This document shows, one piece after another, positions 6,149-54,363 of a stretch of 64,000 nucleotides of DNA (the first letter of the stretch is position 1; every line of letters starts with the position of its first letter). This DNA is from a virus. Lineage: Duplodnaviria > Caudoviricetes. Location of the stretch: IMG/VR virus record IMGVR_UViG_3300029305_005185, positions 96,001-160,000 of that record. One strand, given 5' to 3'. The notes under the pieces were generated by a model. That model made no database searches. It saw only the letters and a program-made list of their open reading frames with translations, and was not told the origin of the DNA. The position numbers and the translations under genes are program-made.

Positions 6149-6907
6149 ATGATTAACAGTTTCAAAGATAATAAAGTGCGCGATAGTGCTTTAGTTTATA
6201 ACGGCACTTGGGAGCAAATAAAAAAATTATATGCCACCAATCCGCAGCAAGCGGGAGAGCTGGCAATTTCTGCCATTGAAATGGCATTGACAGGCGATAT
6301 TAGTTCTGATGACTTTCTTGTTGGAATCGCTTTGGAAAACATGAGAGTGGTAGCTAAAAAGAATAAGGATAAATGGGATAAAGAATGCGACAGAAAACGC
6401 ACGAATAAAATCGCCGCGCTTGCTCTTGATAAAATTGCGGAGTTATATTTACAAAAAATACCACAAACAAAAATTGGTCAAGAATTAAATATTCCACAAC
6501 AAACAGTTAGTTATCGCTTAAATATTATACGCAAAGAATTTCCTGAATTACTAAAAGAGGAATAGGACCTTACCAATTCTACCAACTTTACTAATATTGG
6601 TAATTTTAGTACCAATGGTACCAGTAGTACCAACAATCCAACGTATGATACTGATACTGTAACTGATACTGATACTGATACTGTAACTGATACTGTAACT
6701 GATACTTCTTTACCCGCTACGCGGGAAATTGGTAGAACCTACCAAAAAATGTCAGTGACAGAAATTGACAAAATGTTGGTAGAAAATGATACGGAAGAAA
6801 TTGTATATAAGGACGGCGCGCTAACGAATTACACAACTGGTGAGGTTATCTATCTTGACGCAGATAGCCAAAAGGAATATGATTCTTATCTTTATGAATG
6901 GAGCTAA
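6149..6907 (+). CDS. Putative replication initiator (DUF6291-like N-terminus, HTH, DT-repeat linker); TAG 6563 read as Gln
   Basis: SD GGAGGAG; frame stays open past TAG through DTDTVTDT repeats to TAA 6905. Confidence 0.65.
6646..6706 (+). repeat. GATACT/GTAACT hexamer tandem repeat encoding DTDTVTDT
   Basis: Direct reading; in frame with the 6149 gene. Confidence 0.85.
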
Positions 6908-7615
6908 TTTCATTTTCATTTCTTGAAAGCGTTTCAAAAATCCAATTTCATTTCCATATAACCCGAAACCCTCCCCTACGCGGGAGGGTTGTTTGTTTTC
7001 CCGAAACTATGCCGGCGGGCAGATGGTTCTCTTCCACCATTATAATGTTATCATAAATTTGTCAAATTGTCAATGTTTCTTTCAGTTAAAAATTTGCGTG
7101 GGATGAAGATACCAAAGGTTAGATGTATTGAATTTTGACAGTGTAAAAATGATGATTGATTATATGTTTTTCCATATGATTTTTATAGTATATCAAAAGT
7201 TGGAGAAAACTTAAAAAAATTTTTAAAAAATTTTTAAAAAAGAAAATTTTATTTAAAAAAAATTTAATTTAAATAAAAAATAAAATAATTAAATTTCCAC
7301 GGGAATTTTTTGGATATAATGGGAAAATTTGATTGAACGACACCTCGGTTTTTCTACTTATACGATGAAGATGAAAACGGATTTTGTAGGGGAAAAATGA
7401 AGGATGGTCACTAAAACACCACACCACCCACACCACACACTACCATTCACCTCGGCGACACAACTTTACCCCACCAAAACCCCAAAATCAACGCATCATC
7501 TCCTTTCGTTTTGCTTATATTATTATTTATTTCCTCTTTAAAGCAGAAAAGAAGTAGGCGTATAAACCTTCCTTCTAACCGCCCTAAACAAACTAAAAAA
7601 ATACACTGAGGAAGA

Positions 7616-8023
7616 ATGAGAAACATTATGAAAAAAGCATATCCAAGTAAAGAGCAAATCCGCGATACGCTAACAGCAATCAACAAGTCCTATCGTCAAA
7701 TCGCTCTTGACAGCGGCATATCGTTAAAATCAGTTTTAAATATAATGGACCTGAAAAATTATAATTTTTCATCATACGAAAAAATTATAGCCTATTGCCG
7801 CACTCAAGTGCCAGAAAAAGATTGGACTTATGTTCCTATCGCCGATTTGCTCTTATTTTTTTCGTCTAATAGAATTTCTAACAAAATCGCCGCCAAGTAT
7901 GGATATACATCCTCTATAAGAAAAAGTTTTTTTGCGCAAAGAAACTTACCTAGAATAGATACATATATCCTCCTATGTAATATCAAAATTGAAATGGAGG
8001 CTGAAAACCTATGTTTAGAATAA
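7616..8023 (+). CDS. HTH-type DNA-binding protein (two XRE-like repeats)
   Basis: SYRQIALDSGISLKSVLNI and ISNKIAAKYG helical motifs. Confidence 0.55.
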   Translation: MRNIMKKAYPSKEQIRDTLTAINKSYRQIALDSGISLKSVLNIMDLKNYNFSSYEKIIAYCRTQVPEKDWTYVPIADLLLFFSSNRISNKIAAKYGYTSSIRKSFFAQRNLPRIDTYILLCNIKIEMEAENLCLE

Positions 8024-8199
8024 TCTCAACCAACCTGGAACCCACCCCCGTTTATGTTGCTGATACCAAAGAAGACTTAGAAGCAATTAAGCGCCAGCAA
8101 TATGACAACGATATGCAAGGCATCGCTGCACTAGTGTTGGATGACGGGGACGGCAAGCCAATGTTGTATGTAATGAATACCGAAGGAGAGTGGGTATAA
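8011..8199 (+). CDS. Small hypothetical (virion module) protein
   Basis: SD GGAGG; LYVMNTEGEWV C-terminus. Confidence 0.65.
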   Translation: MFRIISTNLEPTPVYVADTKEDLEAIKRQQYDNDMQGIAALVLDDGDGKPMLYVMNTEGEWV

Positions 8200-8200
8200 T

Positions 8201-8653: not shown

Positions 8654-8656
8654 CAT

Positions 8657-9355
8657 ATGGCACGTTTAATTGAACTAGAAAACCAAAAACAATGCGCCTC
8701 TTGGGGCTATCAAGGTGAAAGTGGCGCAACAATTTTAATCGCTTCTATAAGCGAATTTGCAGCCCAGTATCCAACTGGAAAACCCAATGTAATTTTCCAA
8801 CGTCATGATGGTCATCCTTATATGCACAAATTTATTCTTTCAGGGGAAAATCTCCTTATAGAATTAAATTCTACTGATACTTAGCAATGGGGAAAGTGCG
8901 AAGTTCAAATTAGCTGGCTCGTCAGCGGTAACAAAGTAATGAAGAAGAAAATTTATTCTTCCTACATTTTGCCTGGCGATCTTGAAGGTGACCTTCCACT
9001 TACAGACGAAAGTATTTTAGCTTTGGATAATTTGGAAGCTTATGTAGAAGAAGCAAAATTGCTATTAAATGAAGCAAAACAATACGCCGCTGAACTGGTA
9101 TTTGTTGAAGCATTACCCGAAGTTGGTGATAACACTAAACTTTATATTGACAAAGCAACTTCTTCTATGTATTATTGGAGTGGCGATGCCTTTATGCTTC
9201 TCAATCCTTCTTATGAATGCGATTGTGACGATAAAAAGCCTAGTCCGCCACCACCACCTCCACGTCCACCACACATTCCTTGTCCGCCAATAACAGGCGA
9301 TGGACAAGAGATTCTTTATGGTGGCAATGCTTTCTTTCCACAAGCAGAAGACTAA
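8657..9355 (+). CDS. BppU-like baseplate/adaptor protein; TAG 8882 read as Gln
   Basis: ORFs 8657 and 8939 are in one frame, separated only by TAG. Confidence 0.7.
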
Positions 9356-9399: not shown

Positions 9400-10848
9400 A
9401 TGGCGACAGTTTTAAGCACTAAAATCATTCTTCGTAATGATACTGCGGCTAGTTGGTTAGAACACAATCCAATTCTATCTGCCGGCGAATTTGGTATTGA
9501 ATGGGATACTGGTTTATTTAAAATCGGTAACGGTACAACCACCTATAACAAATTACCATATGCCGGCGCTCCTAGTGCAAGCGGTTCTGCTATTCTAGAT
9601 GCTGATGGATATACCTTAAGCGCGAATCTAGAACGCAAACTTGGCTTAAACAAATGGGGCATAGAATACCACAAATGGGTTGGCGACCACTATGAGCTTG
9701 TTCCCGTTGATGCGAACAATCCATGGAAAATCAACTTACAACCAAAAGTCGCGCAAAACCCAACCACTGGTACCTTAGAGCTTGCTTGGTTTGAACCTTC
9801 CCCAATTTCTGCGGAAGACATTTCTGGCGCAGTTTCCGATTTACAAGAAACTGTTAATACTCTAAGTACTACTGTTGGTACAAAGGAAGATGCCGCAGGA
9901 ACTGATAGTGTTTTTGGCGCAATAGCAACGCTAGACCAAAAACATAACGAACTTGCCGCGATTTCACTTCCTCTCACCGGCGGCCAAATGACAGGTGAAC
10001 TTCTACTTGCAGACGGTTCTCCTGCAGTTTCTGAGAAAACTGTAGATGATAAGATTACCTATGCTGTCGTAAACATGGGCACACTAAAACGCAAAGTAGT
10101 TACTGTTCTTCCTGATGTGGCTGATGCTGATGAGAACACAATTTATATGATAAAGAAGGGAACTTCTTTATTAAGCAATAGTTACGATGAATATTTCTTA
10201 ATTGAAGGTACATTTGAATTAATTGGCGATACGTCTGCCGATTTGGAAGATTATATCAAAAAGCCATTAACATTCACCGAAGGAAATATTGCTTTATTTA
10301 GTAATGATGGTTCAATTAAAGATGCCGGCATTACTGCTAAAGATATATCAGAACATATTGCTGACAATGTTCTTCACATTACTGCCGAAGAACGTGCTCG
10401 TTGGAACTCTGGAACTGGTTCTGGCGAAGCTCCAATTTATATTTTCGGTTCTGGCTTACAAGCTGACAATACTGGCGCAGTAACTTTAAAAGTTGCTGAA
10501 GAAAGTAATGGTATTACCGTTAGTGATGACGGTATTGCTCTTGCTCTTGCAACCAATGAATCCGCTGGCGCGATGTCCGCTGCACAATATTCTAAAATTT
10601 CTAATATGAAAGATATTTAGGGTGTTGTTCTTGGTGATATTGTTGAAGCAGCTTTCGACCCAAAGAATCGTGTACATATTCCAATGGCAAATTCTGTAAG
10701 TCCTGGTGTTGTAGTTTCCTCTAGTGCTACCAACTCTATTGCAGTTGATATGCTTTCTGGTACCATGACCGTAAATACAATTGAAACAAGTAAACTTGTA
10801 GTTCCTGAAGGACAAGAGCTAATCTTAAATGGTGGCTCTGCTTCTTAA
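9400..10848 (+). CDS. Tail fibre-like protein with Mtd_N/hyaluronidase-N domain; TAG 10618 read as Gln
   Basis: IILRNDTAASW..HNPIL.AGE.GIE.DT..FKIGNG...YNKLPY; frame open to TAA 10846 (ELILNGGSAS). Confidence 0.8.
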
Positions 10849-10875: not shown

Positions 10876-12627
10876 ATGGCTGATAATCATACCCTAAATA
10901 CTCGCATTAAACTTAAATATGACAGTTATGAAAACTGGATTGCAAAGGACCCTGTCCTACTAGCTGGCGAAGTTGCCATTGCTACCGTTGCTTCTAATGA
11001 TGCTGAAGGCAAGCCTGGCTTTCAAAACCTACCCAACATTGTATTCAAGGTTGGTGACGGAAGCAGCAAATACAGCGCCCTAAAGTTCGTATCTGCTCTA
11101 GCTGCTGACGTACACAGCTGGGCTAAGGCTGCTGATAAGCCTGTTTACACCGCCGCTGAAATTGATGGAATCAAGGCTTATATTGATGGCGTAATTGGCG
11201 ATCACAGTGAAATTCAAGATACTGATACCAAGTATATCATGGAAACTGTAGATGGCAACACCTATAAGTACGGTCTATATTCTACCAACAAGGCTGGCGA
11301 AAACAAGACTCTAGTATATACTCTAGACCTAAGTGGTGTAGACGGACGTCTAGATGATCTAGAAGCCGCTGTTGGTGAATCTGGTAAAGTTTCTCAACAG
11401 ATTGCTGCTGCTATTGAAGCTATCGCAGTTGCCGAAACCAACCTTGGCACCACTGAAATGTATTCTGGTTACAAGCAGGTTGGCGGTATTGTAACTCTAA
11501 ACAAGCGTACTCTAGGTATTGCTAACGTAGATGGCCTACAGACCGCTCTAGACGCTAAGCAGGACAACTTAGTCTTCGAGACTGCTTATGATGCTGCTAC
11601 CAATAAGGTTGCCACTATGGCTAACGTTACTGGTGCTATCGACGCTCTAGATAAGGCCGATGCCGCTGTTGAAAAACAGTTTGTAACCGCCGTATCTGAA
11701 GAAAATGGTATCATCACTGTAAGTCGTGCTGCTCTAAAGGCTTCTGATATTCCTAATATCACTCAGAGCCAGGTAGACGGCCTAGAAGATGCCTTAGATG
11801 CTAAGCAGGATAACCTAGTAATTGCCGACAATTACAATGCCGAAAGCAATAAGGTTGCTACCGAAGCTACCGTAACTAAGGCTGTTGCTGACTTAAATGG
11901 TGCTATGCACTTTGAAGGCGTTGCGCCTAAGGATCCCACTACCTTCACCAACAAAGAAAATGATGTTTATAGTGGTGGCGACGTCTTACTATTCGGTTAT
12001 GACGAATATGTATATGATGGAAATACTTGGCACAAGCTAGGCAACGAATCCATTTATAAGCTAAAGAGCGAAGCTGCTACCGAGCACGAAGCTATGCAAG
12101 GTGAAATTGATGCTCTAGAAGCTAATAAGCAGGATAACCTTGGCTTTGAAGGTACCTACAACAAGGACACCAACAAGGTTGTAACCAAGTCTGCAATGAC
12201 TGATGCCATCACCTCTGCTGTTGACGCCCTAGATAAGGCTGATACTGCCGTTGAGCATCAGTTCGTAACTAGCGTAAGCGAAGAAAATGGTGTTATTACT
12301 GTTCTACGCGCTCAGCCTGCTATCGCTGACGTAAATGGTCTAACCGAACGTCTAAGCGGTATTGACAGCGAGATTGCTAAGAAGCAAGATATTGTTGGTT
12401 TTGCCGATGATTACAATAAGGACACCAATAAGGCTGCGACCGTAGCAACCGTAACCAATGCTATCAATGCTCTAGACAAAGCTGATGCTGCTGTTGAAGG
12501 ACAGTTCGTTACTGCTGTACCTCAGGAAAATGGTATTGTAACCGTTTCTCGTGCTGCTGTAACCACTGACCACATCCAGCAAGGCACCAAGCCTTTCATT
12601 CTTGATTGTGGCACTGCCACTCTTTAA
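10876..12627 (+). CDS. Repetitive fibre protein with Mtd_N domain (no TAG)
   Basis: Mtd_N N-terminus; repeated ALDKADAAVE.QFVTAV.EENGI.TV.R and AKQDNL units. Confidence 0.85.
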   Translation: MADNHTLNTRIKLKYDSYENWIAKDPVLLAGEVAIATVASNDAEGKPGFQNLPNIVFKVGDGSSKYSALKFVSALAADVHSWAKAADKPVYTAAEIDGIKAYIDGVIGDHSEIQDTDTKYIMETVDGNTYKYGLYSTNKAGENKTLVYTLDLSGVDGRLDDLEAAVGESGKVSQQIAAAIEAIAVAETNLGTTEMYSGYKQVGGIVTLNKRTLGIANVDGLQTALDAKQDNLVFETAYDAATNKVATMANVTGAIDALDKADAAVEKQFVTAVSEENGIITVSRAALKASDIPNITQSQVDGLEDALDAKQDNLVIADNYNAESNKVATEATVTKAVADLNGAMHFEGVAPKDPTTFTNKENDVYSGGDVLLFGYDEYVYDGNTWHKLGNESIYKLKSEAATEHEAMQGEIDALEANKQDNLGFEGTYNKDTNKVVTKSAMTDAITSAVDALDKADTAVEHQFVTSVSEENGVITVLRAQPAIADVNGLTERLSGIDSEIAKKQDIVGFADDYNKDTNKAATVATVTNAINALDKADAAVEGQFVTAVPQENGIVTVSRAAVTTDHIQQGTKPFILDCGTATL

Positions 12628-19999: not shown

Positions 20000-20141
20000 T
20001 AAATAGGGGAGAATTTTCTCCCCTATTTTTTTTGATTGTTAAGAATAAAATGCTTTAATGAATTGTTTTTTTTAACACATTATAAATGAGAGTAATCTCT
20101 TTTAAAAATTCCTTCTTATTTATAACATGGAGGTTAAACAT

Positions 20142-37668: not shown

Positions 37669-37726
37669 CATATACAAAAAATTGATATATAATATACTTG
37701 TAAGTTAAGGAAAGGAAAGAAAACAA

Positions 37727-38539: not shown

Positions 38540-38541
38540 GT

Positions 38542-38883: not shown

Positions 38884-38931
38884 ATTTTAATATATAATAT
38901 ATATATAAAATAAAGAAAGGATATTTATTTT

Positions 38932-39612: not shown

Positions 39613-39683
39613 AAAAATTTGACAAATACAAAAAACTGATATATAATATATATGTAAGATAAAGAAAGGGAGGAAATTCCTCA

Positions 39684-40268: not shown

Positions 40269-40306
40269 TTCCTTCTCTTTGTGATATGAAAGTGAGGTAA
40301 TTAGTT

Positions 40307-41176: not shown

Positions 41177-41192
41177 TATGAAAGGATAAATT

Positions 41193-42275: not shown

Positions 42276-42382
42276 ATGAAATATATTATAATAACAATAC
42301 TTTTTATTATAGCAATAGCAATATCATTTTATTGTTATAGTAAAGACGATAATACTTATTCATAACGAAAGGAAAATAACTA

Positions 42383-42514
42383 ATGTCTAACTCTACTATT
42401 CTTGCTATGCTACGATATCGTGAATCTCTCCTTCTTTCTCGCGATGAGGCTATGAATGCTAATCTGCTACGAAAGATTCGGCGAAATATTCGCAAGTATG
42501 AGGCCCTCGTTTGA
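42383..42514 (+). CDS. Small basic protein (43 aa)
   Basis: SD AAAGGA; MSNSTILAMLRYRESLLLSRDEAMNANLLRKIRRNIRKYEALV; terminator overlaps stop. Confidence 0.55.
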   Translation: MSNSTILAMLRYRESLLLSRDEAMNANLLRKIRRNIRKYEALV

Positions 42515-42578
42515 GGGCTTATTTTTTTGACAAAAATAAAAATTTATTATATAATATATTAGAAAGTGAGGGAAAGAT

Positions 42579-43100
42579 ATGATTTATATTATTGGTGATA
42601 CTCATTTCGGAGAGGAACATATCTTTAAGATGTGTACTAGTTGGCATAAAGATTTTGACACCTGTGAAGAAAAAGATGAAACTATTATTGATTTATGGAA
42701 TGAATTTGTTACAAACGCCGATACTGTTATTGTCGCTGGTGATTTCGGTGACCCCAGCTATGCTGGCCGTTTGAATGGTAAGAAAATTCTTATTATGGGT
42801 AATCATGATTGGGAATGGTGGAACAAAGTGGGTAAGCATGAATATGAACATTTTGAGCATGTATGTCCTTATCCCACTATGATTGAAAATTTTTATCTCA
42901 TCAGTCATGAACCACAATATGTTTCTCCCAACGGAGTGATTGCTAATATTTTCGCACATGTTCATGATAATCCTAATTATAAAAATGTAAGTTCGCGTGG
43001 TTATTGTGTATCCGCGGAGCGTATTGATTGGTCCCCTATTTTGTTAGATTCTATTATTGAAGAAATGAAAATGGAGGAAAAAGCTAATGGGAATTTTTAA
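42579..43100 (+). CDS. Calcineurin-like metallophosphoesterase
   Basis: GDTHF, AGDF, GNHD, SHEP, AHVH; promoter 42527-42555. Confidence 0.88.
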   Translation: MIYIIGDTHFGEEHIFKMCTSWHKDFDTCEEKDETIIDLWNEFVTNADTVIVAGDFGDPSYAGRLNGKKILIMGNHDWEWWNKVGKHEYEHFEHVCPYPTMIENFYLISHEPQYVSPNGVIANIFAHVHDNPNYKNVSSRGYCVSAERIDWSPILLDSIIEEMKMEEKANGNF

Positions 43101-43750
43101 TGATGATATGTGTATTCACAACAATAACGGAGTTTGCGCTTTGAATCTATCTCAGTTGGCTTGGGAAAATAAGTTGCTTAAAGAAGAAAATGAAAAATTG
43201 AAAAAAGAAATTGAAGAACTTAAGAAAAGGAGTAAATAAATATGTTTTGGTTTATTATTGGCGCTGGTTTAGGTTTTTATTGTGGCATTTGGGGAACGCT
43301 AAAGATTATTCATATGACCTATCCTCATATTTATCGCGAGTTTGAAAATGGCGATTGGAAGATAAAGTATTACAATGCTAAAGCCAAGGCCGCGGAAGAA
43401 GAGGATGAGATTCTGTGAAGAGTTTTATTTGGTTTTTGATTGGCATAGTATTTGGTTGGGTAATTATTGCTTCTATGTTCCCAAGTGTTGGCGAAGCTAT
43501 GTTAGAAGAAGGTTTCCTTCCGGCTGTTGCTGGTATTGTGAAGGGTTGGTTTATTAAATGAAGATTGATTGGAAAATTCTAAAAACAAGTATTTGGGAAA
43601 CATTTTATAAAAGTCTAATTTTCATAGGACTAATTGCTCTGGCTCTTGGTCCTATCCCTCTTGGACTTTTTGTGTCTCCCTGGTTTCTTCTAATTTATCC
43701 TATTGTTTTCTTTTGTGAAGAAGTAAGAGAAGCTTATGAAAGAAAAGTAT

Positions 43751-44323
43751 ATGAATCAGAATCGGAAGCCAAATATCAAGATTAAGAATATTTTTCGTCA
43801 TCTTAAAACTATTCGCACCCATCGTAAATGGGTAAAACACTATTGTTTCCAGTTAGGTCTTTACCGTCAAGGTTGGCTTCATGATTTAAGTAAATATTCT
43901 CCCACTGAATTTTGGGAAAGTGTTCGTTATTATCAGGGCACCAGTTCTCCTATTGATGCTTCCAAGAAAGCAAATGGTTATTCTCCCGCTTGGTTCCACC
44001 ACCGTGGTCGCAATCTTCATCACAATGTTTGCTGGATTGATAATATCAATGAAGGGGTTAAACCAGTTCGCATGCCGTTTGATTATGTATGCGAAATGAT
44101 TTGCGATTGGATGGCAGCAGGACGCGCGTATATGGGAGATGATTTTTCTTATGCTAAAGAATATGATTGGTATAGAAAGCGCACTTTCTTTCTTCATCCT
44201 CATACCAAGCGTTTGGTAGATGAAATTATGACATTTATTGTTCGTTTTGGCGATGATGCTTTTAGTTATGGTCTTTGGGAAGATATGATGGAAGAATTTT
44301 ATATTGATGAGGAAAACTTCTAA
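43751..44323 (+). CDS. DUF5662-like (HD-related) protein
   Basis: HDLSKYSP.EF, WFHH.GRN.HH, EMICDW.AAG. Confidence 0.75.
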   Translation: MNQNRKPNIKIKNIFRHLKTIRTHRKWVKHYCFQLGLYRQGWLHDLSKYSPTEFWESVRYYQGTSSPIDASKKANGYSPAWFHHRGRNLHHNVCWIDNINEGVKPVRMPFDYVCEMICDWMAAGRAYMGDDFSYAKEYDWYRKRTFFLHPHTKRLVDEIMTFIVRFGDDAFSYGLWEDMMEEFYIDEENF

Positions 44324-44356
44324 TAGAAATATCATAAAAAGAATACCTATATTTAG

Positions 44357-44776
44357 ATGAATAAACACTTCTTTGATTTGGCTCGTGCTGAATCTTATAA
44401 GGCTACTTATAGTGGTTATTCCGCGGTGAAGATTGGTTGTGTAGTTGTGTATCATGGAACTATTCTTGCCCGCGGATGTAATAGTGATAAAAGTCACACT
44501 ACACAAAGTAGATATAACTATCTTAGATACAATGATAAACATTTAAATCATTATTATCATGCTTCCATACATGCAGAAATACAAGCCCTAAATAAAATAA
44601 AATATTTAGATATAGACTTTTCTAAGGTAGAAGTCTACGTATATCGTGGCTATAAAAATGGCGGAACTGCCATGGCTAGACCCTGCGCAAGTTGTATGGA
44701 ATTTATAAAAAGTTTGGGAATAAAAAATATTTATTATACTACACCTGATGGGTTTGCACACGAAAGGATAAAATAA
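44357..44776 (+). CDS. Zinc-dependent cytidine/dCMP deaminase-family protein
   Basis: HAEIQAL and ARPCASC zinc motifs. Confidence 0.85.
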   Translation: MNKHFFDLARAESYKATYSGYSAVKIGCVVVYHGTILARGCNSDKSHTTQSRYNYLRYNDKHLNHYYHASIHAEIQALNKIKYLDIDFSKVEVYVYRGYKNGGTAMARPCASCMEFIKSLGIKNIYYTTPDGFAHERIK

Positions 44777-44779
44777 ATT

Positions 44780-45316
44780 ATGACGCATGCTTCTCGTAAT
44801 ACTACTACTGGTTTAACTTTTGAAAGAAATACTCCTATTAATAAAATTTTTGATTTTTTGCCAAATAATAAAGTATTAATGTTTGCTAGTAATGCTGTTA
44901 TGGCAAAAGAAACTGGGATGTTAAATTGGCGCGATTATGTTGGAAATTTGCCAGGACTTACTTATGTTGGAGAAAGAAATGGTCGTCATCCAACTATTTG
45001 GAATAAAAATTACATTCCCGATGGTGCGATTATTTATAATAATACACTTTATATTATTGAAAAAAAATATCAACAGTGTGTAGGTACTGTTGATGAGAAG
45101 CTAACATCTGGTGATTTTCGAAGAACAATGTTTGAAAAATTATCAAAATATTTTCCCATTCAAATTAACAATGTAAAATATTTATTTATTTTGGGTGAAT
45201 GGTTTAAAGCAGACAAATATAAAGATTCTATTGAATATGTAAGAAATAAAGATTCAAATGTAGAATTTATGTTTTATGATGAAAAACCTCCTCGCAATTT
45301 TTTTGGAGTCGAATAA
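44780..45316 (+). CDS. PD-(D/E)xK nuclease, restriction-endonuclease-like
   Basis: IPDGAI...IIEKKYQ..GTVDEKL. Confidence 0.65.
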   Translation: MTHASRNTTTGLTFERNTPINKIFDFLPNNKVLMFASNAVMAKETGMLNWRDYVGNLPGLTYVGERNGRHPTIWNKNYIPDGAIIYNNTLYIIEKKYQQCVGTVDEKLTSGDFRRTMFEKLSKYFPIQINNVKYLFILGEWFKADKYKDSIEYVRNKDSNVEFMFYDEKPPRNFFGVE

Positions 45317-45319
45317 ATT

Positions 45320-45862
45320 ATGGCATTAAATGTTGGATACTTAAAAGCTAAAACTGACAAAGCTTCTGATGAAGTATATACTCCAGCTTATGCAGTTAAG
45401 CCAATTTTAAAATATATAGATAAAGGTAATAAAACTCAATATACTGTATGGTGTCCTTTTGATACTGAAGAAAGTGAATATGTAAAAATGATTCGTGCCG
45501 AAGGACATAAAGTAATTGTAAGTCATATTGATGAAGGTAAAAACTTTTTTTATTATGAACCAGAAGAACAGTATGATTGCATTATTTCAAATCCTCCATT
45601 TAGTCTTAAAGACGATATTATTAAACGACTTTATGAATTAAATAAACCTTATGCTATCCTTCTGCCAATTCCAGCTCTACAAGGACAAAAACGTTTTCCA
45701 TATATGAAAGATTGCCAAGCTTTATTATTTGATAAAAGAATTAATTATTATACCACACCTGAGCGAAAAGAAATCCAAAAAGGTGTAAGTTTTGGTTCTT
45801 TTTATCTTTGTAGAAATTTTTTACCTAATGATTTGATTTTTGAAGAACTAAATGTAAAATAA
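45320..45862 (+). CDS. Amino (N6-A/N4-C) DNA methyltransferase
   Basis: DEVYTP, VWCPFD, ISNPPFS motif IV. Confidence 0.85.
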   Translation: MALNVGYLKAKTDKASDEVYTPAYAVKPILKYIDKGNKTQYTVWCPFDTEESEYVKMIRAEGHKVIVSHIDEGKNFFYYEPEEQYDCIISNPPFSLKDDIIKRLYELNKPYAILLPIPALQGQKRFPYMKDCQALLFDKRINYYTTPERKEIQKGVSFGSFYLCRNFLPNDLIFEELNVK

Positions 45863-45889
45863 AAAAAATAAGGAAGCCTTATGGCTCCC

Positions 45890-46195
45890 TTACATTTTCT
45901 CCAATCGTTTCACAACACTAACTCTCCAATCTTCAAGTTCGTCAAGCATATGCTATACTAAACACCCCATTGGATCTTTTTCAACATGGATGTTTTCTTT
46001 TTCCATTAGGCTGTGAAACATTGTGTGAACTTCTTTGTATGATTTGGTAAGTCTTGTCATTGCTTCTGTTGCAAAATATTTTGCCACATCTGTCATTCCG
46101 CATTCTTTCGCATGACCGGCATATTCAAGAAGCATTTCAGAATCTTTTACATCATCATACATAATTTTATAAAAATATTTTAGTAGTTTAGACAT
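45890..46195 (-). CDS. Ferritin-like helical hypothetical protein; 1 TAG (45953)
   Basis: Reads CLV(Q)HMLDELEDWRVSVVKRLEKM to TAA at 45890. Confidence 0.65.
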
Positions 46196-46207
46196 CGCTC
46201 GCACCCC

Positions 46208-46627
46208 TTATCTGATTTTTACAATAGTTACTGCAACATTGGAGTATAAAGCTTCAATGCCAGTATTTCTAATAGTTAAAGTAGAAGGAACATTCCCATC
46301 TATTGCGCAACAATTTGGCAACACTTTTACAATAGTTTCAAAGCCTATATTATCAATTTCAGTTGTTGCGGTAGTAATAGTGGTTGTTGCTTCCGCTCCT
46401 TCATAAATTTCACCATTTACATATAATTGAGCTACTACATCTCCAGCTGCCGCGGCGGATACGTCACCATGGAAATGGACCAGGTAATAACCTGGTCCAT
46501 TCAAGCTAAAAGAACCGGTGCCCGCGGAGTGAGTAGAACAACGACCAGACACGACGCCATTGTCATCAAATAATATGGTGGCATTAACAGCAACTGTCTG
46601 GTCGCTTGTGGAGTAAGAATAAATCAT
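46208..46627 (-). CDS. BclA C-terminal/C1q-like beta-sandwich protein
   Basis: FSLNGPGYYLVHFHG, QLYVNG, VAVTIVKI. Confidence 0.6.
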   Translation of the reverse strand: MIYSYSTSDQTVAVNATILFDDNGVVSGRCSTHSAGTGSFSLNGPGYYLVHFHGDVSAAAAGDVVAQLYVNGEIYEGAEATTTITTATTEIDNIGFETIVKVLPNCCAIDGNVPSTLTIRNTGIEALYSNVAVTIVKIR

Positions 46628-46645
46628 AGCTTGCCACCTCCATTA

Positions 46646-47395
46646 TTAGCCAAAAGCGTATCCGGGGTTAGTGCCGCAACCACAGCCAGTAGCGGGAACT
46701 ACATTAGCAGTTGCGTATGGTGAGCAAGTGAGGTAAGCGGGAATGGGGCAGGGTTTGAGTGTATTAATTAGAGTTTGGTTCTGTGCTAGCTGGCTGAGTT
46801 GGAAATCACGAGCTAGAATATCACGATCACGAGCTTCTAAGCGATCGCGCAAATCCTGAACCATGTTCGCGTTGATTAAAGCGCGAGTTGCTTCGCCTTC
46901 TGCGTGGATGGCATTAGTAATCTCGCAAGTATTCTTGGAATTTTCAAATCTTACGTTGTCGATGTTGCGGTTAGTTTCGCAGCAACACTGCTGAGCAGCA
47001 AAGCGATTTTCTGCGATGTTGTTATTTACGCTATTGAAGCCAACACACAAATCACGCTGTATACCATTAAAGCCCTGTAGAGTTGCAGTATTCATAGTAT
47101 AGAAACCATCGCTTAAACCATAGGTTACACCATCTAGTTTCTGTAGAATACTATTGGTGTCAAAAGCACGTTGGATGTCAGCCTGAGTAGCATATTGTCC
47201 TGCGGCAGTGGCGAGACCGGCCATTCCGGGGCCGTAGCCTTCGCCCCAACCATTACCAGTGAAAGAACGAGCCATGAACATCCATACGAGGTAGATGAAG
47301 GGGTTATTCCACATACCATTCATACCCCAAGCGTCATCATTGTTACGAGTTACAGCCGCAATGTCGGCTAAAGAGATACCATTGTCAGTCATCAT
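46646..47395 (-). CDS. Cys/Gly-rich membrane protein of a type common in clostridial phages
   Basis: SLADIAAV, TM segment, TQADIQRAFD, QQCCCET, PCPIPAYLT, GCGCG. Confidence 0.8.
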   Translation of the reverse strand: MMTDNGISLADIAAVTRNNDDAWGMNGMWNNPFIYLVWMFMARSFTGNGWGEGYGPGMAGLATAAGQYATQADIQRAFDTNSILQKLDGVTYGLSDGFYTMNTATLQGFNGIQRDLCVGFNSVNNNIAENRFAAQQCCCETNRNIDNVRFENSKNTCEITNAIHAEGEATRALINANMVQDLRDRLEARDRDILARDFQLSQLAQNQTLINTLKPCPIPAYLTCSPYATANVVPATGCGCGTNPGYAFG

Positions 47396-47409
47396 AATTA
47401 CGACCTCCT

Positions 47410-47604
47410 TTATTTAAATTGATTTATAAATTGTAAACCAGCTTGTATTTCGTTTTCTGGAATTCCTTGCTAGCGAGCCTGAAGTACAAGTTGATTTAGC
47501 ATGTTCTGATTCATATTGGGCAACCAAGCCTTAAATTGTTGTGGATTAATATTAGGTGTCCCATTGTTGGTTCGTGGTTGTGGTAGATTTTGATTGAGTA
47601 GCAT
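47410..47604 (-). CDS. Gln/Asn-rich small protein; 1 TAG
   Basis: SD AGGAGG; ..LVLQAR(Q)QGIPENEIQAGLQFINQFK. Confidence 0.7.
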
Positions 47605-47944
47605 CTTTATTTCCTCCTAAGGCATTTAGTATAGTGGATAGTTGTTTTTCAAGATTGGCTATCCTGCTTTCAATTGTTGGTTCATTATTTTCTACCGTTG
47701 TTTTTGGACTTTCCGTATATGGAGCCAATTTATAAGCCAAGAAAACTGGCATCCCATTCTACATTGACTTCATATAAAGAAGGTTCTCTTGCAAACATAG
47801 CGCCGCGGTGATTCCAGCACCAGCGGGTATGTTAGCGACCTCAAGACTATTTTGAATTACATACACATTTCCTTGCGGTTGAGGAAACATAGGCTATTGT
47901 GGGTAATAATTCGTGGCTAAGTTATTTTGGTATTGGTAGGCCAT
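47552..47944 (-). CDS. Hypothetical protein (Gln/Pro-rich N-terminus); 2 TAG
   Basis: SD AGGAGGTG; MAYQYQNN..YYPQ(Q)PMFPQPQ..YMKSM(Q)NGMP; in frame with track ORF 47552-47752. Confidence 0.75.
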
Positions 47945-48142
47945 TATTCTACCACCTCCTTTCATAGTATAAGTGGAAAAGTGGGTAGTACTTTAAATCT
48001 GCCATATGAGAATTTATGAATAGAAACTTATAAATTGTTTGACGAAAATTTTACAATTGTTACAATTTTGTTTCTAAAATAAAAATTGCACTTTTCTAAA
48101 AATTTTGTTATAATATAAAAAAAGTAAAGGAGATGAACAATT

Positions 48143-48490
48143 TTGGTTCACAATGCTATTCTGGTAAATCCAGAAAAAAACTTGGTTGTATATGCTAAAT
48201 CTACTACTTTTGATGAAAGCGACGAAATGAATTTTACCTATGAGGCTACCAATGAAGCTTTCAATCTTGCGAAAAAGGCTGATGTAAAAGGCGGCATTAT
48301 TTTCCTTGATGATGCTCCCACTCTTGATAGCGCAAAAGCTATTATTTCTGCAGGACTTAGTAAGGTAATTTATAAAATTCCTATTGAAAATGAAAATGAA
48401 GCCGCCGCTTGTCAGTTGCTTGAGCAGTATGGTATTCCCGCTATTTTTAATGATGAAATTATTGTAACAAAGCAACACGCAAAAGTATAA
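48143..48490 (+). CDS. dCMP-deaminase-like protein lacking zinc ligands
   Basis: AKAIISAGLSKVIY tail is typical; HAE and PCxxC replaced. Confidence 0.55.
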   Translation: MVHNAILVNPEKNLVVYAKSTTFDESDEMNFTYEATNEAFNLAKKADVKGGIIFLDDAPTLDSAKAIISAGLSKVIYKIPIENENEAAACQLLEQYGIPAIFNDEIIVTKQHAKV

Positions 48491-48502
48491 GGAGTGATAC
48501 TT

Positions 48503-48931
48503 ATGGAGTTTGAAAGTATCGTATTTATTATTCTTGGAACATTACTACTTGGTGGCGTAGTTGTTTGCGCTTATTTTGGCAAAGATTATCTACGCTATCA
48601 TAAAGTCTTTGCTCCAGTTCTTGAAATTCTTTGTAGTTGTATTAAGGGAATTAGTGGCATGATGCCTAATAACGCTTCTCTTATGATTCTTTCTACAGTA
48701 CTAAACGCCGCAGTTGAAGCCACCGAAATGGCAGAAACTTTGTGGCTAGAAGGAACAATTGATAAAGAACAGCGTAACGCCTATGCTAAGAATTATATCG
48801 CCGGCATTCTTGAAAAAGCAAAGATTCCAGCAGATAACAATATTAACTCAATTGTTGATGGTGTAATTGCTTTCGTATGTTATTTATTGCCGCATGGTAA
48901 TGCTCCAGTAGTTACAGATGAGGAAGTTTAA
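48503..48931 (+). CDS. Putative holin (LL-H-like)
   Basis: N-terminal TM helix; AAVEATEMAE...RNAYAKNYI pattern; upstream of lysis genes. Confidence 0.55.
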   Translation: MEFESIVFIILGTLLLGGVVVCAYFGKDYLRYHKVFAPVLEILCSCIKGISGMMPNNASLMILSTVLNAAVEATEMAETLWLEGTIDKEQRNAYAKNYIAGILEKAKIPADNNINSIVDGVIAFVCYLLPHGNAPVVTDEEV

Positions 48932-49012
48932 TGACTTCCTCTTATTTTTTTGAGAAAAATTATATGAAATTTTTTACTCTTTTCTCCACCTAAATACAAA
49001 GGAGGGAAGAGT

Positions 49013-49663
49013 ATGACAACAACAAGAATTCCCATTTATGATTTGCTAATTTTTCTTGATGAAAAGAGTGAAACTTTTGAAAGGAAAAATAACATTTTAG
49101 ATTTTGTTATAGATCATTATAAATGTTTAACAAATATAACTCTAAAGTTTTCAAAAGAATATGCAATGGAAACTTTATGTTTTTGTGATAACGGGCTAAT
49201 TGCCAATGGAAACTTCCCAGTAAAAGAAGGAATGTTAGTAAAAAATAAGAAAGGTGAATACGGCATTACATTCCAAGGATAGCACAGTTATGAGCTAGAT
49301 CCTAACCCAACACCTGTTTTATGGGTTTGGACATTAGATAGCAAAGGAATGTTGATTTCTGATTTTTTTAATGTAAATGATTGGATAAAGTGGGGGGCAA
49401 TGTCTTCTTTATATTAGTATTGTGACTATAAAGAAGGAATAGATTATAATCTTGGAGAAAGAGACATATCACGCGGCATGGTAGGAAAAGATGTATTGCT
49501 TATTCAATAGCATCTTTCTCTTTATGATGCCGATGTTCCTTTAACTGGCGAGTTTGAAGAAAAAACTGAAAATTTTATAAAAGGAATACAACGTATGCAC
49601 TTTAATTATGCTGATATAGATGGCGTGATAAAAAAAGAGCATCTTGATATTTATTTAAGGTGA
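49013..49663 (+). CDS. Protein with C-terminal peptidoglycan-binding domain; 3 TAG
   Basis: RGMVGKDVLLIQ(Q)HL..TGEFEEKT..IKGIQ..IDGVI. Confidence 0.7.
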
Positions 49664-49670
49664 TGCGATA

Positions 49671-51056
49671 GTGGATATTAAAGTTAAGTTATCTCGTGAA
49701 GAAAATATTCAATATTACGGCGCCACCGAAATCACAATAGACATAGAAGATTACTTATTAGGGGTGGTCCCTTCGGAAATAGGAAATGCAAATGTTGAGG
49801 CGTGCGCGGCTTAGGCAATAGCATCGCGAACGTATGCAATGAATACAGTAAAGACTAATGGGTATATTACTGATAAAAGTAGTATTCACTAGGCTTTTAG
49901 AGTAAGCAGGCTTACTGGATTTCCAAATGCTTATGAAGGAGTAAAGAAAACAAGAGGACAATTATTATATTATAATAATAAAATTGCGAAATGTTATTAT
50001 TGTGCTTCCAATGGTGGCCAAACCACTTCTTCAAAAGAACGTTGGGGCGGCGATTATGCTTATTTAATTTCCTAGCCCGACGAATATGATAAAGGGCCTA
50101 AAAATGGTCATGGAGTTGGATTGTCTCAACAAGGCGCCGCGGCTCGTGGAGTAGCCGGACATACATATGAATAGATTTTGTCTTTCTATTTTCCTGGAAC
50201 AAAAATTGTAAAGGAGGTGGAAGAAATGGCAACGAACAATGAAACAAAAGTTTTATCTTGGTTAGAAGAACGTATAGGCGATGGATATATTTATGGCGCA
50301 AAAGGACAAGTCGCTACTGGTGATTTTATTTTACAACAAATGGAACAATATCCAGAATATGTAAAATATGATGTAGTTTCTAAATGGATAAATAAAAAAG
50401 TTTGGGATTGCGCGACCTTAGTACGTTTCGCAATGAAAGAAGTCGGTATTTCTATGGTTAGTGGCGCTACCAGTTAGTGGAATAAAACTAATTGGCTTCG
50501 TAAAGGTAAGATTGCAGAATTGCCCAAAAATAAAATTTGCTGTTTATATCGTCGCACAGATGCAGGCATAATGTAGCACACTGGTGTTTATCTTGGCAAT
50601 GGCTACTTTATTGATGCTCGCGGTTCTTCTACTGGTGTTGTTAAAACTAAATTAGAAAAATATCCTTGGACCCATTGGGGTATTCCCAAAGGGTTGTATA
50701 CAGAAAAAGAGTTGGCAGACGCTTCTACGCCTGCTATTCCACAGGAGGTTTTGAAAGTGTTGTATAAAGCAAAAGTTATTGCAGAAAGTGGTTCTACTGT
50801 TCGCATGCGTAGTGTCGCATCTGGCTCTGCTTCTACTATTAAGAAGGTACCAGTTGGTTCAGAAGTTGAAGTTGTAGCAGAACAGCCAGAATGGAAGCAA
50901 ATTATATATAATGGCCAAACTGGTTTTATGATGGATGATTTCCTAGAAAAGATAGAGGAGGCGAAACCAAATGAGTACTATGTCAAAATCAAGTGCTCCT
51001 CAGCAGCGGAAGCCGAACGCCTCGCTAAACTTTTAGCAACAGCAGTAGCAAACTAA
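49671..51056 (+). CDS. Endolysin: SpoIID/LytB + NlpC/P60 + SH3b; 6 TAG
   Basis: EDYLLGVVPSE, AA(Q)AIASRTYA, GHGVGLSQQGA; WDCATLV, ATS(Q)W, HTGVYLG; VRMRS..GQTGFM. Confidence 0.9.
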
Positions 51057-51366
51057 TGAGGGTTTTTTGCGTAGGCTAATAACCAAAGCAAATGAACATA
51101 GCAAGAAACTTACTATTATTGATACAGTAATTTACGTATTTCTTATGATAGCGTTAATCGCAGTAATGATTATTTGGCCGCATATTGCTGATCATTGTGT
51201 AGATGCTATGGGCTATGTTACCACTGCTTTTGTAGCAGTAAGACTTGGTTATAGTGCAAAAGGCGCTGTTGAAAACTTTATGAAAATAAAATCAAATATA
51301 ACTTCACAGGGAGTTTCTAGCGTAATAGTCGAAGAGACAGTAAGTGAAGAAGAAACATTAGGATAA
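50971..51366 (+). CDS. Putative two-TM holin overlapping the endolysin 3' end; 2 TAG in a poly-Gln run
   Basis: SD GAGGAGG, MSTM..; TAG CAA CAG CAG TAG CAA; in frame with track ORF 51067. Confidence 0.7.
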
Positions 51367-51409
51367 AATTTTTTTTCTCCGATGAAAGTCGGGGGGGTTT
51401 TAGTAACAT

Positions 51410-52594
51410 ATGGCGACTAGTACGCTAAAAACAAGAATAAAACATAAAATTGATACTGCTTCCAATTGGGCAAGTTCTAGTCTTGTTCCATTGGAAGGTG
51501 AATTAATTATATATAAAGGCGATAAACCACAAATAAAAGTCGGTGATGGTTCTACTACAGTTGGAAGTTTACCATTTATCAAGGCCGGCAGTGACACAAC
51601 AATTACATAGGCATTAACAAGTGGAACGGAAATTGGTAGTATTAATATTGATGGAGTGGCAACGAAGTTGTATGCTCCTTCTACTATTGCTTGGAGTAGC
51701 GTGACTAGTAAGCCAAGTTACTATGATGCAAAAGCTATAAAATCTATTACTCGTTCTGGAACGACTTTTACCTGGACTTGTATGGATGGTACAACAGGGA
51801 CTTTTACATAGTAGGATAATAATACGACTTATTCGGCCGGAACTGGACTTACTCTTTCTGGAACTACATTTAGTTTAAACGCCACGGCAACAAAAACAGC
51901 ATTAGGATTGGGTAGTAATGCCTATACAAGTACTGCTTATTTGCCACTCACCGGTGGTTCGATGAGTGGAGCTATTGTAGCTTAGCCAAGTGCGAAAAAC
52001 ACTTTTTTATTATGGGGATCTTCGACAGATAAAAATTCATCTTATGACATCCCTTGGTATGGTTTGTCTTTTTATAATGATGGAGTATAGCAGGGAAATG
52101 CACTTGCACTGGCTAACTATTGGGGAATTAATTTTATTACTGCTGGAGATAGTAATACTCATTTATATCATAATGGAAATTTGATATTAAATACATCTAA
52201 TTATACCAATTACGCTCCAACCAAAACAGGTTCTGGTGCGAGCGGAACTTGGGGCATAAATATAACAGGATCTTCTGCAAGTTGTACTGGTAATGCGGCG
52301 AGAGCGGGATTTATTACTTGTGAAGATAACAGAGCTACTATGGCAACTCCAAATGAATATACAATGGGAGCAGATTTAGAGTTTAAATCTGCTGAAGCAA
52401 CTGGATTATCTGGTTATTCTGCTGTATTAACAGTAAAACCTTGGACTGATAGCTCAGGAGGCGTAGTTCATTAGTTAGCTTTTAATGCGTCTGGACTCTA
52501 TCATCGAATTTCCACTTCAAATTTAGCTTCTTGGGGATCTTGGTGCAAATTATGGCAAGCCGGAGATGCTGTTACTGGCGCAGTTTGGAATTAA
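51410..52594 (+). CDS. Tail fibre with Mtd_N domain; 6 TAG; ends GAVWN
   Basis: One frame; TAG at 51608, 51809, 51812, 51983, 52088, 52472; TFT(Q)(Q)DNNTTY. Confidence 0.85.
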
Positions 52595-52674
52595 AAATAA
52601 TAAATAAAATAACACAACCGGCGCCCTGAAAAGATGGGCGCCGCCATTCTTCTGAAATGATTGGAGGTTTTAAA

Positions 52675-54363
52675 ATGGCAAAATAGTTAAATGCAAGAAT
52701 AATTACAAAGCATGATATAGAAGCCAATTGGGAAAAAGCATTGACTTTTATTCCAAAATTAGGCGAAATCATTATTTATGAGACACCAGACAAAATAATT
52801 CCTAACAAATATGACTGGACTAGCATACCTAGATTAAAAATTGGCGATGGAAAAAGTACAATTAATGAATTGTTTTTTATTACCGATGCTTTTGTTTAGA
52901 AAAAAAATGGTTGGGATTTGTCTGAAAATAATTATACTGATACTCATTGGGGTATTGTAAATAAAATAGCAAATTTAGGTTATGAACCAAAATATACTGA
53001 TACAACTTACACCGCGGGAAAAGGTTTGGGCTTAAAAGTAGAAGAAGGAGAAAATGTTTTTTATAACACTGGTATCATTTCAATTTAGGGTTCAGAAAAA
53101 AACGGTTTTATTAAATATCGTTTAAATACTGGTCTTAATGATAGTGATTATAGGGACATTGAAATTGGCATTCCGGGCTTACAACAAACTGCTTTTACTC
53201 CTTTATCCAATTTCTTAACCTCAGATTCTTTAATAAAAATTAATAACTCTATTACTAAACTAGAATCAAGCACAACTCCCGGTTCATTGAAATACACTAA
53301 TGCTGTTGGAGAAACGGGTTTGGTCGCAGTTCCAGGATTGGGTAAGTTGGCATTTAAAGATGGATTTGATGGGGATTTTATTGAGGTTGTAGAAGTAGCT
53401 GTTTAGAGTAATTAGCCCAATGACGCTATTCCAATTTGGATTAATCCTAGTGGAGAAGATAATTTAGGAATATTAAAATATTATAATAGTTATACATAGT
53501 CTTATGTTAATATAGATATAGGAGTAAAAAAAATAACTCCACTTACTGGGGGCTTTTCAAAATATGGTTTTATTGCTACGGATGGTGCTACAGAAGAAAG
53601 CTATCAATTTGGAGTTTTAGGTATTAATAATAAAAGTGACGAACCTGGTACTTTATTGGTCGAATTTAATGGAAGCACTTATGATCTCGTACTTAAAACA
53701 AATCTTACTTTTTCTTCTGGAACACAAAACGGTAGCTTTTCAGTTACTTAGAATGGTGAAACTAAAAATATTCCAATTTATGGTCTTGGTTCTAATGCCT
53801 TTACTTCTACCGCCTATCTTCCTCTTGCAGGTGGTACTGTTACTGGTGTAACCGCTTTTTCAAATACAACAAATTCCACCTCAACTTCTACCGGCGCCGT
53901 TAAAATTTCAGGTGGCTTAGGCGTTGCAAAAGATATATATGGAGCTAAAGTTCATGGCTCTGTATATAATGACTATGCTGAATACCGTCAATCTGAAGAA
54001 CTTATTGAACCCGGATATATTGTTTATTCTGGTGACGATGGAATCTTACATAAAACTGTTGGACGTTTACAATTCTTTGAAGGTATAGTTTCCGACACTT
54101 TTGGTTTTTCAATCGGTAAAACAGATAAAGCTCAAACTCCACTAGCAGTGGCTGGACGCGTGCTTGTATATACAGATGAAGAACTCCATGCCGGCAATGT
54201 AGTTTGCGCTGGTCCGAATGGTAAAGCATGTAAAATGACAAAATAGGAAATTAAAGACCACCCAGATCGTATAGTTGGAGTTGTTTCTGAAGTTCCGAGT
54301 TATGAAACTTGGGGAGAAGAAAATATTTCTGTAAATGGAAGAGTTTGGATTAGAGTAAAATAA
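52675..54363 (+). CDS. Tail fibre with Mtd_N and peptidase G2-like chaperone; 8 TAG
   Basis: SD GGAGG; MAK(Q)LNARIITKHDIEANW; GSVYNDYAEYR..PDRIVGVVSE; invisible in the standard-code track. Confidence 0.85.

Follow-up and report, generated by a model that had tools for sequence, protein, structure and literature searches.

Borges et al. (bioRxiv 10.1101/2021.08.26.457843) described alternatively coded gut phages in which structural and lysis genes are recoded and replication genes largely keep the standard code, and Peters et al. (2022) reported peptide evidence for code 15 in crAss-like phages. Together with the MgCod preprint and the paper on phAss-1 (PMC10607447), these two reports already describe the phenomenon, the role proposed for it and its arrangement in blocks. 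The present analysis concerns the in-frame TAG codons and the suppressor tRNA (anticodon CUA) in a 64,000-nucleotide stretch of phage DNA, called here the window, which comprises bases 96001-160000 of the single 180,867-bp virus record IMGVR_UViG_3300029305_005185. Positions are those of the window unless marked as genome positions. The record was rated 100% complete by CheckV, has a G+C content of 37.7% and holds 27 predicted tRNAs, a single one of which carries the anticodon CUA. Very probably it represents a code-15 phage in which TAG is read as glutamine (Gln) and the recoding serves as a translational lock on late functions.

Genes were called with our own simple caller, not Prodigal or MgCod, using a codon log-odds model trained on long standard-code open reading frames (ORFs) and a greedy choice of non-overlapping frames under four codes. 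An earlier note on this stretch had counted by hand about 50 in-frame TAGs in 18 genes; an explicit listing gave 49 in 17 ORFs, and the caller 48 in 17 of 97 genes. The individual positions named there were exact (26193 in a DegT gene, 49812 in a SpoIID domain, 50475 in an NlpC/P60 domain, and a tandem TAG-TAG at 51809/51812 in the fibre gene 51410-52594). The TAGs that it had placed inside a poly-Gln run were not borne out: the only such run with TAGs, at about 51031-51048, overlaps the final endolysin codons in an alternative frame, scores -6.4 in the codon model against +2.9 for the endolysin frame, and is found upstream of the TTG start at 51067 with its GAGGG ribosome site. The earlier note had also proposed that coding density be compared between translation tables 11 and 15. 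The densities, with TGA and TAA readthrough as controls, were as follows.

Whole genome: standard code 69.6%; TAG read 85.7%; TGA read 68.6%; TAA read 71.0%
Window: standard code 75.8%; TAG read 85.4%; TGA read 74.2%; TAA read 75.8%
The two TAG-rich blocks of the window: standard code 68.6%; TAG read 92.2%; TGA read 69.5%; TAA read 68.0%
Other blocks of the window: standard code 83.5%; TAG read 83.8%; TGA read 79.2%; TAA read 84.1%

Genome-wide, density changed by +16.1 points with TAG, -1.0 with TGA and +1.4 with TAA. The window gained 9.6 points with TAG and nothing in the control codes, and its gain came entirely from the blocks 6113-26579 and 49013-54363. Chance can thus be set aside as the source of the pattern. 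By these simple-caller figures the phage shows the gain in density that is looked for in a code-15 phage, for which Kienbeck et al. give 5-10% as the threshold for calling recoding. The TAG-interrupted genes are whole only if TAG is a sense codon, and a standard-code annotation shatters the late genes, so that the tape measure, fibres, terminase and endolysin are missed or split. The genes and blocks of the window are listed below in order, all on the plus strand.

6113-6907, plus strand: first gene of the fibre block, DUF6291-like with a helix-turn-helix; one TAG (6563)
8657-9355 and 9400-10848, plus strand: two tail or fibre genes with one TAG each, the second with an Mtd_N N-terminal domain
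10876-12627, plus strand: fibre paralogue of 583 amino acids; no TAG among 20 Gln-family codons
12651-19625, plus strand: fibre or host-recognition protein of 2324 amino acids with a weak CotH match and DUF6273; seven TAGs, no TAA or TGA
20127-22961, 23041-24570, 24708-25169 and 25199-25405, plus strand: four fibre-type genes with Mtd_N and Peptidase_G2-like domains and with two, three, one and two TAGs; the second has a tandem TAG-TAG at 23977/23980
25494-26579, plus strand: DegT/DnrJ/EryC1 sugar aminotransferase; four TAGs, that at 26193 on the invariant Gln of the LDE[IL]QA motif
26650-48950, plus strand: TAG-poor block of 49 called genes, among them FolD, Thg1-like, HNH, PurA/PurZ-like and metallophosphatase genes; four lone TAGs against 119 CAA and CAG codons
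49013-49663, plus strand: protein of 216 amino acids without known family at the head of the lysis block; three TAGs
49671-51056, plus strand: endolysin with SpoIID, NlpC/P60 and SH3_3 domains; six TAGs, two of them at conserved Gln (49812, 50475)
51067-51366, plus strand: putative membrane protein of 99 amino acids with a hydrophobic stretch, holin-like by position only; no TAG; TTG start after GAGGG
51410-52594 and 52657-54363, plus strand: two fibre genes with an Mtd_N N-terminus; six and eight TAGs
55848-64000, plus strand: TAG-free block of 21 genes, opening with a perfect promoter at 55848-55876 and including an RNA ligase (61921-63327); no TAG against 63 CAA and CAG codons

Nine genes at 6113-26579 thus hold 22 TAGs and four genes at 49013-54363 hold 23, together 45 in 13 genes. 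The remaining four are lone and all lie in the TAG-poor block at 26.65-49 kb: one (36399) is codon 2 of its ORF, another (35935) stands three codons before a TGA, and two (35111 and 45955) are found at 78-80% of the length of two short ORFs. All four may be something other than sense codons, either real stops or codons upstream of where the gene truly starts. Over the whole genome, 301 TAGs were found in 50 of 217 called genes. The TAG share of Gln-family codons was 13/664 in the TAG-poor blocks and 288/988 elsewhere (odds ratio 0.049, Fisher p = 2e-55), and it differed among the late blocks (0.124, 0.353 and 0.458). No TAG occurs in the 31 genes at genome 81.7-102.1 kb, which cover window positions 0-6.1 kb, or in the 21 genes at window 54.4-64.2 kb, so the claim that the early blocks are nearly TAG-free stands, with the 49 genes at 26.65-49 kb contributing only the four lone codons.

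Gene ends agree with this division. In the TAG-poor blocks the standard-code genes end in TAA 115 times, TGA 34 times and TAG five times (n = 154), in line with the earlier statement that confident gene ends are TAA or TGA. Each of the five TAG ends (genome 16730-17119 and 19940-20353; window 34934-35167, 35509-35949 and 45890-46195) has a back-up TAA or TGA 1-20 codons further on; these may be early genes for which TAG serves as the stop, with a short extension added when the suppressor has appeared. Outside the TAG-poor blocks, 66 of 106 standard-code calls end in TAG.

Beyond the window, TAG was found in the tape measure (116 in 4075 amino acids), two large tail proteins (25 and 15), the terminase (six), the portal (one) and two further fibres, and also in RuvC (10 in 241 amino acids), GIY-YIG endonucleases and a family 2 glycosyltransferase (GT2; four). 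The TAG-free set includes gyrase B and A, DnaB, RecJ, Pol III alpha, NrdD, DNA ligase, PhoH, FolD, the Thg1-like protein, the short adenylosuccinate-synthetase homologue and the RNA ligase. TAG is thus concentrated in structural and lysis genes as in other code-15 phages. The claim that it is confined to particular modules holds as a strong bias towards virion, fibre and lysis genes but not absolutely, with DegT, GT2, the GIY-YIG endonucleases and RuvC as exceptions. Likewise, the lysis and fibre genes are TAG-dense as regards the fibres, the endolysin and its neighbour, but the holin-like gene at 51067-51366, for which PHROGs gave no holin assignment, has none.

The placement of promoters follows the same division. 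A scan of the whole genome for TTGACA-N16-18-TATAAT with at least 11 of 12 matches, that is, for consensus sigma-70 promoters, gave 73 near-consensus sites; 20 shuffles gave 10.8 on average and 16 at most. Fifty-eight of them lie in the 97 kb of TAG-poor sequence and six in the 58.6 kb of the three TAG-rich blocks; all 28 perfect sites are on the plus strand, and none is in a TAG-rich block. The block 26650-48950 has eight near-consensus sites, six of them perfect. The promoter distribution is independent support for the early/late split, and it favours a scheme in which the host polymerase transcribes TAG-free genes as soon as infection begins, the TAG-rich modules forming another class. The exceptions are DegT, with an 11/12 site at 25445-25473, GT2, with a perfect site, and the first gene of the structural operon, with an 11/12 site. 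In 32 upstream regions no late promoter motif was evident by eye. A TAG-bearing late sigma factor gating late transcription was considered and rejected, as the PHROG label 'sigma factor' on the first structural-operon gene had no Pfam support. Since TAG use and consensus host-type promoters almost exclude one another over the whole 181 kb, the phage offers an unusually clean test case for a late-gene lock. Separately, assembly-graph joints in public contigs tie positions 38597, 39669, 42559 and 48116 to 54362-55092, all of them consensus promoter regions, which places the promoters in repeated cassettes that extend beyond the hexamers.

The suppressor tRNA lies in the same window, as the earlier note had said, between the second TAG-rich block and the TAG-free block that follows it.

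54774-54802, plus strand: perfect promoter TTGACA-17-TATAAT, 125 nt upstream of the tRNA
54774-54927, plus strand: the promoter and the leader after it, with a 20-codon ORF, a terminator-like hairpin (54889-54910) and a T run, ending just before the tRNA
54928-55018, plus strand: suppressor tRNA of 91 nt with anticodon CUA, called by ARAGORN; 60.5 bits with the Rfam tRNA model; CCA encoded
55089-55836, plus strand: perfect sigma-70 promoter (55089-55117), then ROOL RNA (55216-55836; 330.4 bits against a gathering score of 99.1)

The TAA stop of the leader ORF falls within the loop of the hairpin, which is strong, and a hairpin directly upstream of the tRNA is also found in L018-, L020- and L022-type loci. 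The leader hairpin may attenuate synthesis of the tRNA, which is offered as an idea only. An Rfam scan of 54700-55300 by E-value found no ribozyme beside the tRNA; the only extra match there was RatA, below threshold at 29.5 bits (threshold 49), which covered the hairpin on the opposite strand. The ROOL RNA is full-length and stands behind its own perfect promoter, 200 nt downstream of the tRNA.

Virion, fibre and lysis modules rich in TAG, replication, nucleotide-metabolism and small-ORF blocks nearly free of it, and a tRNA with anticodon CUA within the window together match the known model of late-gene recoding, as had been proposed for this stretch. The recoding is predicted to act as a timer. 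Host RNA polymerase would first transcribe the TAG-free early and replication genes and, from its own perfect promoter, the suppressor tRNA. A host enzyme would charge this tRNA with Gln, the phage being without a synthetase or release factor of its own. Messages bearing TAG would terminate early at first and give the full-length product only after the tRNA has accumulated. Suppression would compete with the host release factor RF1, so that the most abundant virion proteins would stay TAG-free. The host part in this scheme is consistent with the search of the rest of the genome for release factor 2 (RF2) and glutaminyl-tRNA synthetase (GlnRS) that the earlier note had suggested, in which neither was found: the record encodes neither an RF-1/RF-2 domain nor a catalytic domain of a Glu/Gln-tRNA synthetase, and positive controls matched in 10 and 14 of 14 control genomes.

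A different explanation accepts that TAG encodes Gln and denies that its distribution is regulatory: codons would drift to TAG wherever slow or partial suppression is tolerated, and purifying selection would remove TAG wherever speed or yield matters. Abundant virion proteins of the late operon fit such a drift. In the YonB-like capsid candidate (genome 73022-74059; a lead, with an Atlas score of 0.98) none of the 14 Gln-family codons is TAG, and four genes of the abundant type, this candidate and three small ones, together have 0/31 against a block share of 0.353. In four relatives (L069-L072) the capsid homologues have 0, 0, 1 and 0 TAGs and the terminases 5-8. Abundant virion proteins being TAG-free, suppression therefore seems costly enough to be avoided there, and a single late operon contains both low-copy proteins crowded with TAG and the abundant capsid candidate, which avoids it. 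TAG positions also vary among related terminases. On the other side, the first TAG comes earlier in genes than random placement would give, at a mean relative position of 0.176 against 0.273 in simulations (P about 0.001, 40 genes; median codon 44.5). Products terminated at these early first TAGs would therefore be short, which fits a lock, although start-codon choice could inflate the effect. TAG is moreover near-absent from about 150 early and replication genes, many of them surely low-copy, and the same module pattern is described by Borges et al. in unrelated recoded phage clades. Drift of this kind is somewhat unlikely, but it is the most serious competitor of the lock. For the capsid candidate, structure prediction from a five-sequence alignment was unusable (predicted local distance difference test, pLDDT, 38; predicted template modelling score, pTM, 0.23), and sequence searches of the PDB with this candidate and with the phrog_2729 protein gave nothing meaningful.

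Several observations weigh against the lock as a timing device. The caller is crude, and its choice of start codons can bias the positions of first TAGs. The holin-like gene, in the midst of the lysis block, is free of TAG. Sigma-70-type promoters stand ahead of some TAG-bearing genes (DegT, GT2 and the first structural-operon gene), and the suppressor tRNA itself is behind an early-type promoter; both features speak for drift, and the recoding is therefore a putative timer.

The residue inserted at TAG was assessed by aligning every called protein, X standing for TAG, with five standard-code relatives and scoring the opposing residues by substitution frequencies from the same alignments. For 81 positions and 172 alignment cells, which are not independent, the log likelihoods were -464.5 for Gln (Q), -490.3 for glutamate (Glu, E), -498.1 for K, -523.9 for S, -590.3 for Y, -603.6 for L and -605.3 for W. 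Gln is thus the best-fitting predicted residue and Glu the second, with Ser, Leu, Tyr and Trp far worse. Single columns point the same way, and the earlier placing of TAGs on conserved Gln positions was upheld in the domains concerned. Position 233 of DegT (TAG 26193) is Q in 4/4 PDB alignments shown, position 48 of SpoIID is Q in 3/3 alignments, and the NlpC/P60 'ATS(Q)W' position is Q in the 3/3 informative alignments (7cfl, 3pbi and 6biq; two CwlO chains are gapped there). At two terminase columns the five standard-code relatives and Phass-1 all have Q, and this phage and four recoded IMG/VR relatives have TAG in some cases and Q in others. The reading of TAG as Gln is thereby supported by likelihood and by invariant-Q columns in terminase, DegT, SpoIID and NlpC/P60, with a margin over Glu that becomes small when one relative is taken per position.

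It is quite improbable that TAG is decoded as Glu, Lys or Trp, or ambiguously, as might be proposed from the Trp-like core and unusual arm of the tRNA. A number of results do count against Gln. With only the best relative at each of 77 positions, Q was ahead of E by just 3 log units, and in bootstraps of these positions Q won 1381 of 2000 (69%) and E 472. The sites at which at least three standard-code relatives agree comprise two Q, one K and one I, the last two both in the tape measure, where K is found in three relatives. One terminase TAG faces W, W, W and Y, that is, W in three relatives, and the TAG of Phass-1 at a terminase column is E in all 10 other aligned sequences. The other three DegT TAGs face E/D/K/E, K/K/K/R and T/T/K/N. 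Two further measures were set aside as evidence. Amino-acid composition suits Q in the aligned regions (3.86% against 3.93% outside the tape measure), but K and S nearly as well, and so does not discriminate; the depletion of CAG (fraction 0.24 in TAG-rich genes against 0.54), taken as a sign of TAG replacing CAG, is matched by all G-ending codons, which are rarer there. Against Trp stand its likelihood, already given, and a W content that would reach 2.09%, compared with 0.94% in the relatives; against any residue other than Gln stand the invariant-Gln columns.

The elements of the tRNA are U1·U72, G73, G2-C71, G3-C70, G4-C69, G5-C68, A9 and G10, with a variable region of about 21 nt. Among the identity elements of bacterial tRNA-Gln given by Giege and Eriani (2023, PMC9976931), G73, G2-C71, G3-C70, G10, U35 and A37 are present; U1-A72 (here U1·U72), G36 (here A36, needed for UAG), U38 (here A38) and the short variable loop (here about 21 nt) are not. 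Nor is this otherwise a canonical tRNA-Gln, given the U·U at 1:72, A38 and the 21-nt variable region, and in its core it resembles phage tRNA-Trp (score 35) more than tRNA-Gln (26), which again speaks against Gln. With the arm removed, its nearest non-suppressor kin among 435 predicted tRNAs are the tRNA-Trp(CCA) of related phages, from which the anticodon arm differs by one base. In Table 1 of the same review, however, its acceptor-stem elements, G73, G2-C71 and G3-C70 among them, are listed for both bacterial tRNA-Gln and tRNA-Trp. The review also records that the amber-suppressor form of E. coli tRNA-Trp is charged with glutamine, which counts against a reading of TAG as Trp. That tRNA resembles the present one in carrying CUA on a body with G73, G2-C71, G3-C70, G4-C69, G5-C68 and A9; it has A1-U72, whereas the phage tRNA, whose charging we infer, has U1·U72 and a variable region of about 21 nt. 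From its sequence, then, the suppressor tRNA is a putative Gln acceptor, by inference only.

ARAGORN labels the molecule tRNA-Pyl, and this label follows from the anticodon alone. A tRNA-Pyl is compact, with a very short variable loop and a lengthened anticodon stem, and is accompanied by pyl genes; the 91 nt, 5-bp anticodon stem and long variable region found here do not fit, and the label was rejected.

The long arm is shared. The same 17-base anticodon stem-loop was found in 54 CUA tRNAs of 51 IMG/VR loci; 25 of them are 87-92 nt long (15 distinct sequences), and 11 of these 15 have a Gln/Trp-like body. Besides the present one, arm-bearing suppressors of 87-92 nt are found in loci L015, L018, L020, L022, L024, L033, L063 and L068, several of them related TAG-recoded phages, and four of five tested genomes with long CUA tRNAs have a related, TAG-bearing terminase. 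The long suppressor tRNA of Phass-1 (L068:17538-17625) has 88 nt and the same kind of variable arm. In an RNAalifold analysis of 10 sequences the arm contained a 3-bp stem, two of its three pairs with compensatory changes, and a 7-nt loop with a conserved TCTG; 1:72 is U·U in seven of the 10 aligned long suppressor tRNAs. A limited search of the Borges preprint, the phAss-1 paper and the theta-ribozyme preprint found no mention of the arm, which is no proof that it is unpublished. It may be conjectured that this tRNA represents an undescribed structural class of phage amber suppressors, with a Gln/Trp body, a 1:72 mismatch and a conserved arm as functional handle, and that its expression from a consensus promoter, by way of a leader ORF with its stop codon in a terminator loop, is the actual switch opening the TAG-locked late genes; taken jointly these propositions are doubtful. 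If they were true, the extra arm would serve as a handle in charging, as a protection against host nucleases or to engage a phage factor. In any case the tRNA raises the question by which enzyme, in a host presumably of the Bacillota, a CUA tRNA with a class-II-like arm and U1·U72 is charged.

Over about 90% of its length the large terminase shares 32-39% identity with those of Geobacillus virus E3, Enterococcus phage H1, Alicyclobacillus phage KKP_3916, Bacillus phage FADO and Brevibacillus phage Sundance; with those of Lactococcus 949-like phages the identity is likewise 32-39%. The phage is a complete 181-kb siphovirus-type phage of animal gut samples, with terminase kin among SPbeta, Geobacillus E3 and Lactococcus 949-like phages of Bacillota. 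The host is probably a member of the Bacillota, because the terminase relatives infect Bacillota; the SpoIID domain, an anaerobic ribonucleotide reductase and the ROOL RNA are further hints. The public runs holding the sequence are animal faeces metagenomes, with no RNA run among the 24 listed. The genome ends (1-200 and 180668-180867) have about 150 bases in common, with few mismatches near the start, which suggests a circular or terminally redundant genome. With the endolysin as query, tblastn found no close relatives in IMG/VR.

The standard-code relatives (E3, H1, KKP_3916, FADO and Sundance, of the SPbeta-like YonF terminase group) share with this phage a syntenic packaging, head and tail operon, but unlike it they have no in-frame TAGs in these genes, and in the stretches of them that were fetched the CUA tRNA was not found. 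This comparison bears on the proposal that the TAG-rich modules were gained by recombination from another recoded phage and that the pattern is a historical mosaic. Fibre genes are typically mobile, and the unequal TAG shares of the late blocks would suit such an origin. The two gene sets, however, are alike in coding GC (37.4% and 35.9%) and in relative synonymous codon usage (r = 0.92), the structural operon is the syntenic one, and the terminase TAGs at the two invariant-Q columns are common to distant recoded relatives. A mosaic is therefore most unlikely. That the interrupted genes are pseudogenes or assembly errors can be dismissed, since only TAG interrupts them, domains run on across the TAGs, the coding-density controls contradict it, a matching tRNA is present in a record rated complete, and, in contigs of four public animal-faeces runs compared with 37001-57000, 31 of 32 listed pieces, TAG-carrying ones included, have no other letters and one has a single one. 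The matching runs may belong to the source campaign and are not independent support; as their TAG sites do not vary, synonymy receives no population evidence from them.

Two further groups of genes in the window were recorded. The product of 41193-42275 is a short (360 amino acids) adenylosuccinate-synthetase homologue whose best PHROG is a PurZ-type family (9e-35; Pfam Adenylsucc_synt 2e-15), and it could point to 2-aminoadenine DNA. A Thg1-like tRNA 5'-end nucleotidyltransferase (37727-38539) and the RNA ligase (61921-63327), both TAG-free, may together make up a set for tRNA repair, the phage having 27 tRNAs.

Compared with the phages described by Borges et al., the present one, read as a code-15 phage with locked late genes, is alike in the change of TAG to Gln, in encoding a suppressor tRNA and in relying on host synthetases, and its several recoded late modules are spread over a large genome as with Jade, Sapphire, Agate and Lak of that preprint. 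It differs from them in having no RF2/synthetase 'code change module', and from their account in that consensus sigma-70 promoters, too, are present or absent along the same split. phAss-1 (OQ749652; Babkin et al. 2023, PMC10607447; proposed Phassvirus) likewise has a large genome of siphovirus type, a tape measure of great length and TAGs in the genes for terminase, portal, tape measure and fibres; it too carries tRNA-Sup-CTA genes among many other tRNAs and lacks a dedicated synthetase. Its genome is 136 kb compared with 181 kb, and three suppressor tRNAs are reported for it compared with one here. Membership in Phassvirus is defined in that paper by more than 80% nucleotide identity and synteny with phAss-1, and the terminase protein of the present phage shows 32.7% identity to its counterpart in Phass-1, a phage placed by NCBI in the 'Caudoviricetes code 15 clade'. 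The phage is thus a new, distant member of the known code-15 phages, outside Phassvirus. What is less ordinary about it is its suppressor tRNA of 91 nt, with the long variable arm and U1·U72 that it has in common with related phages.

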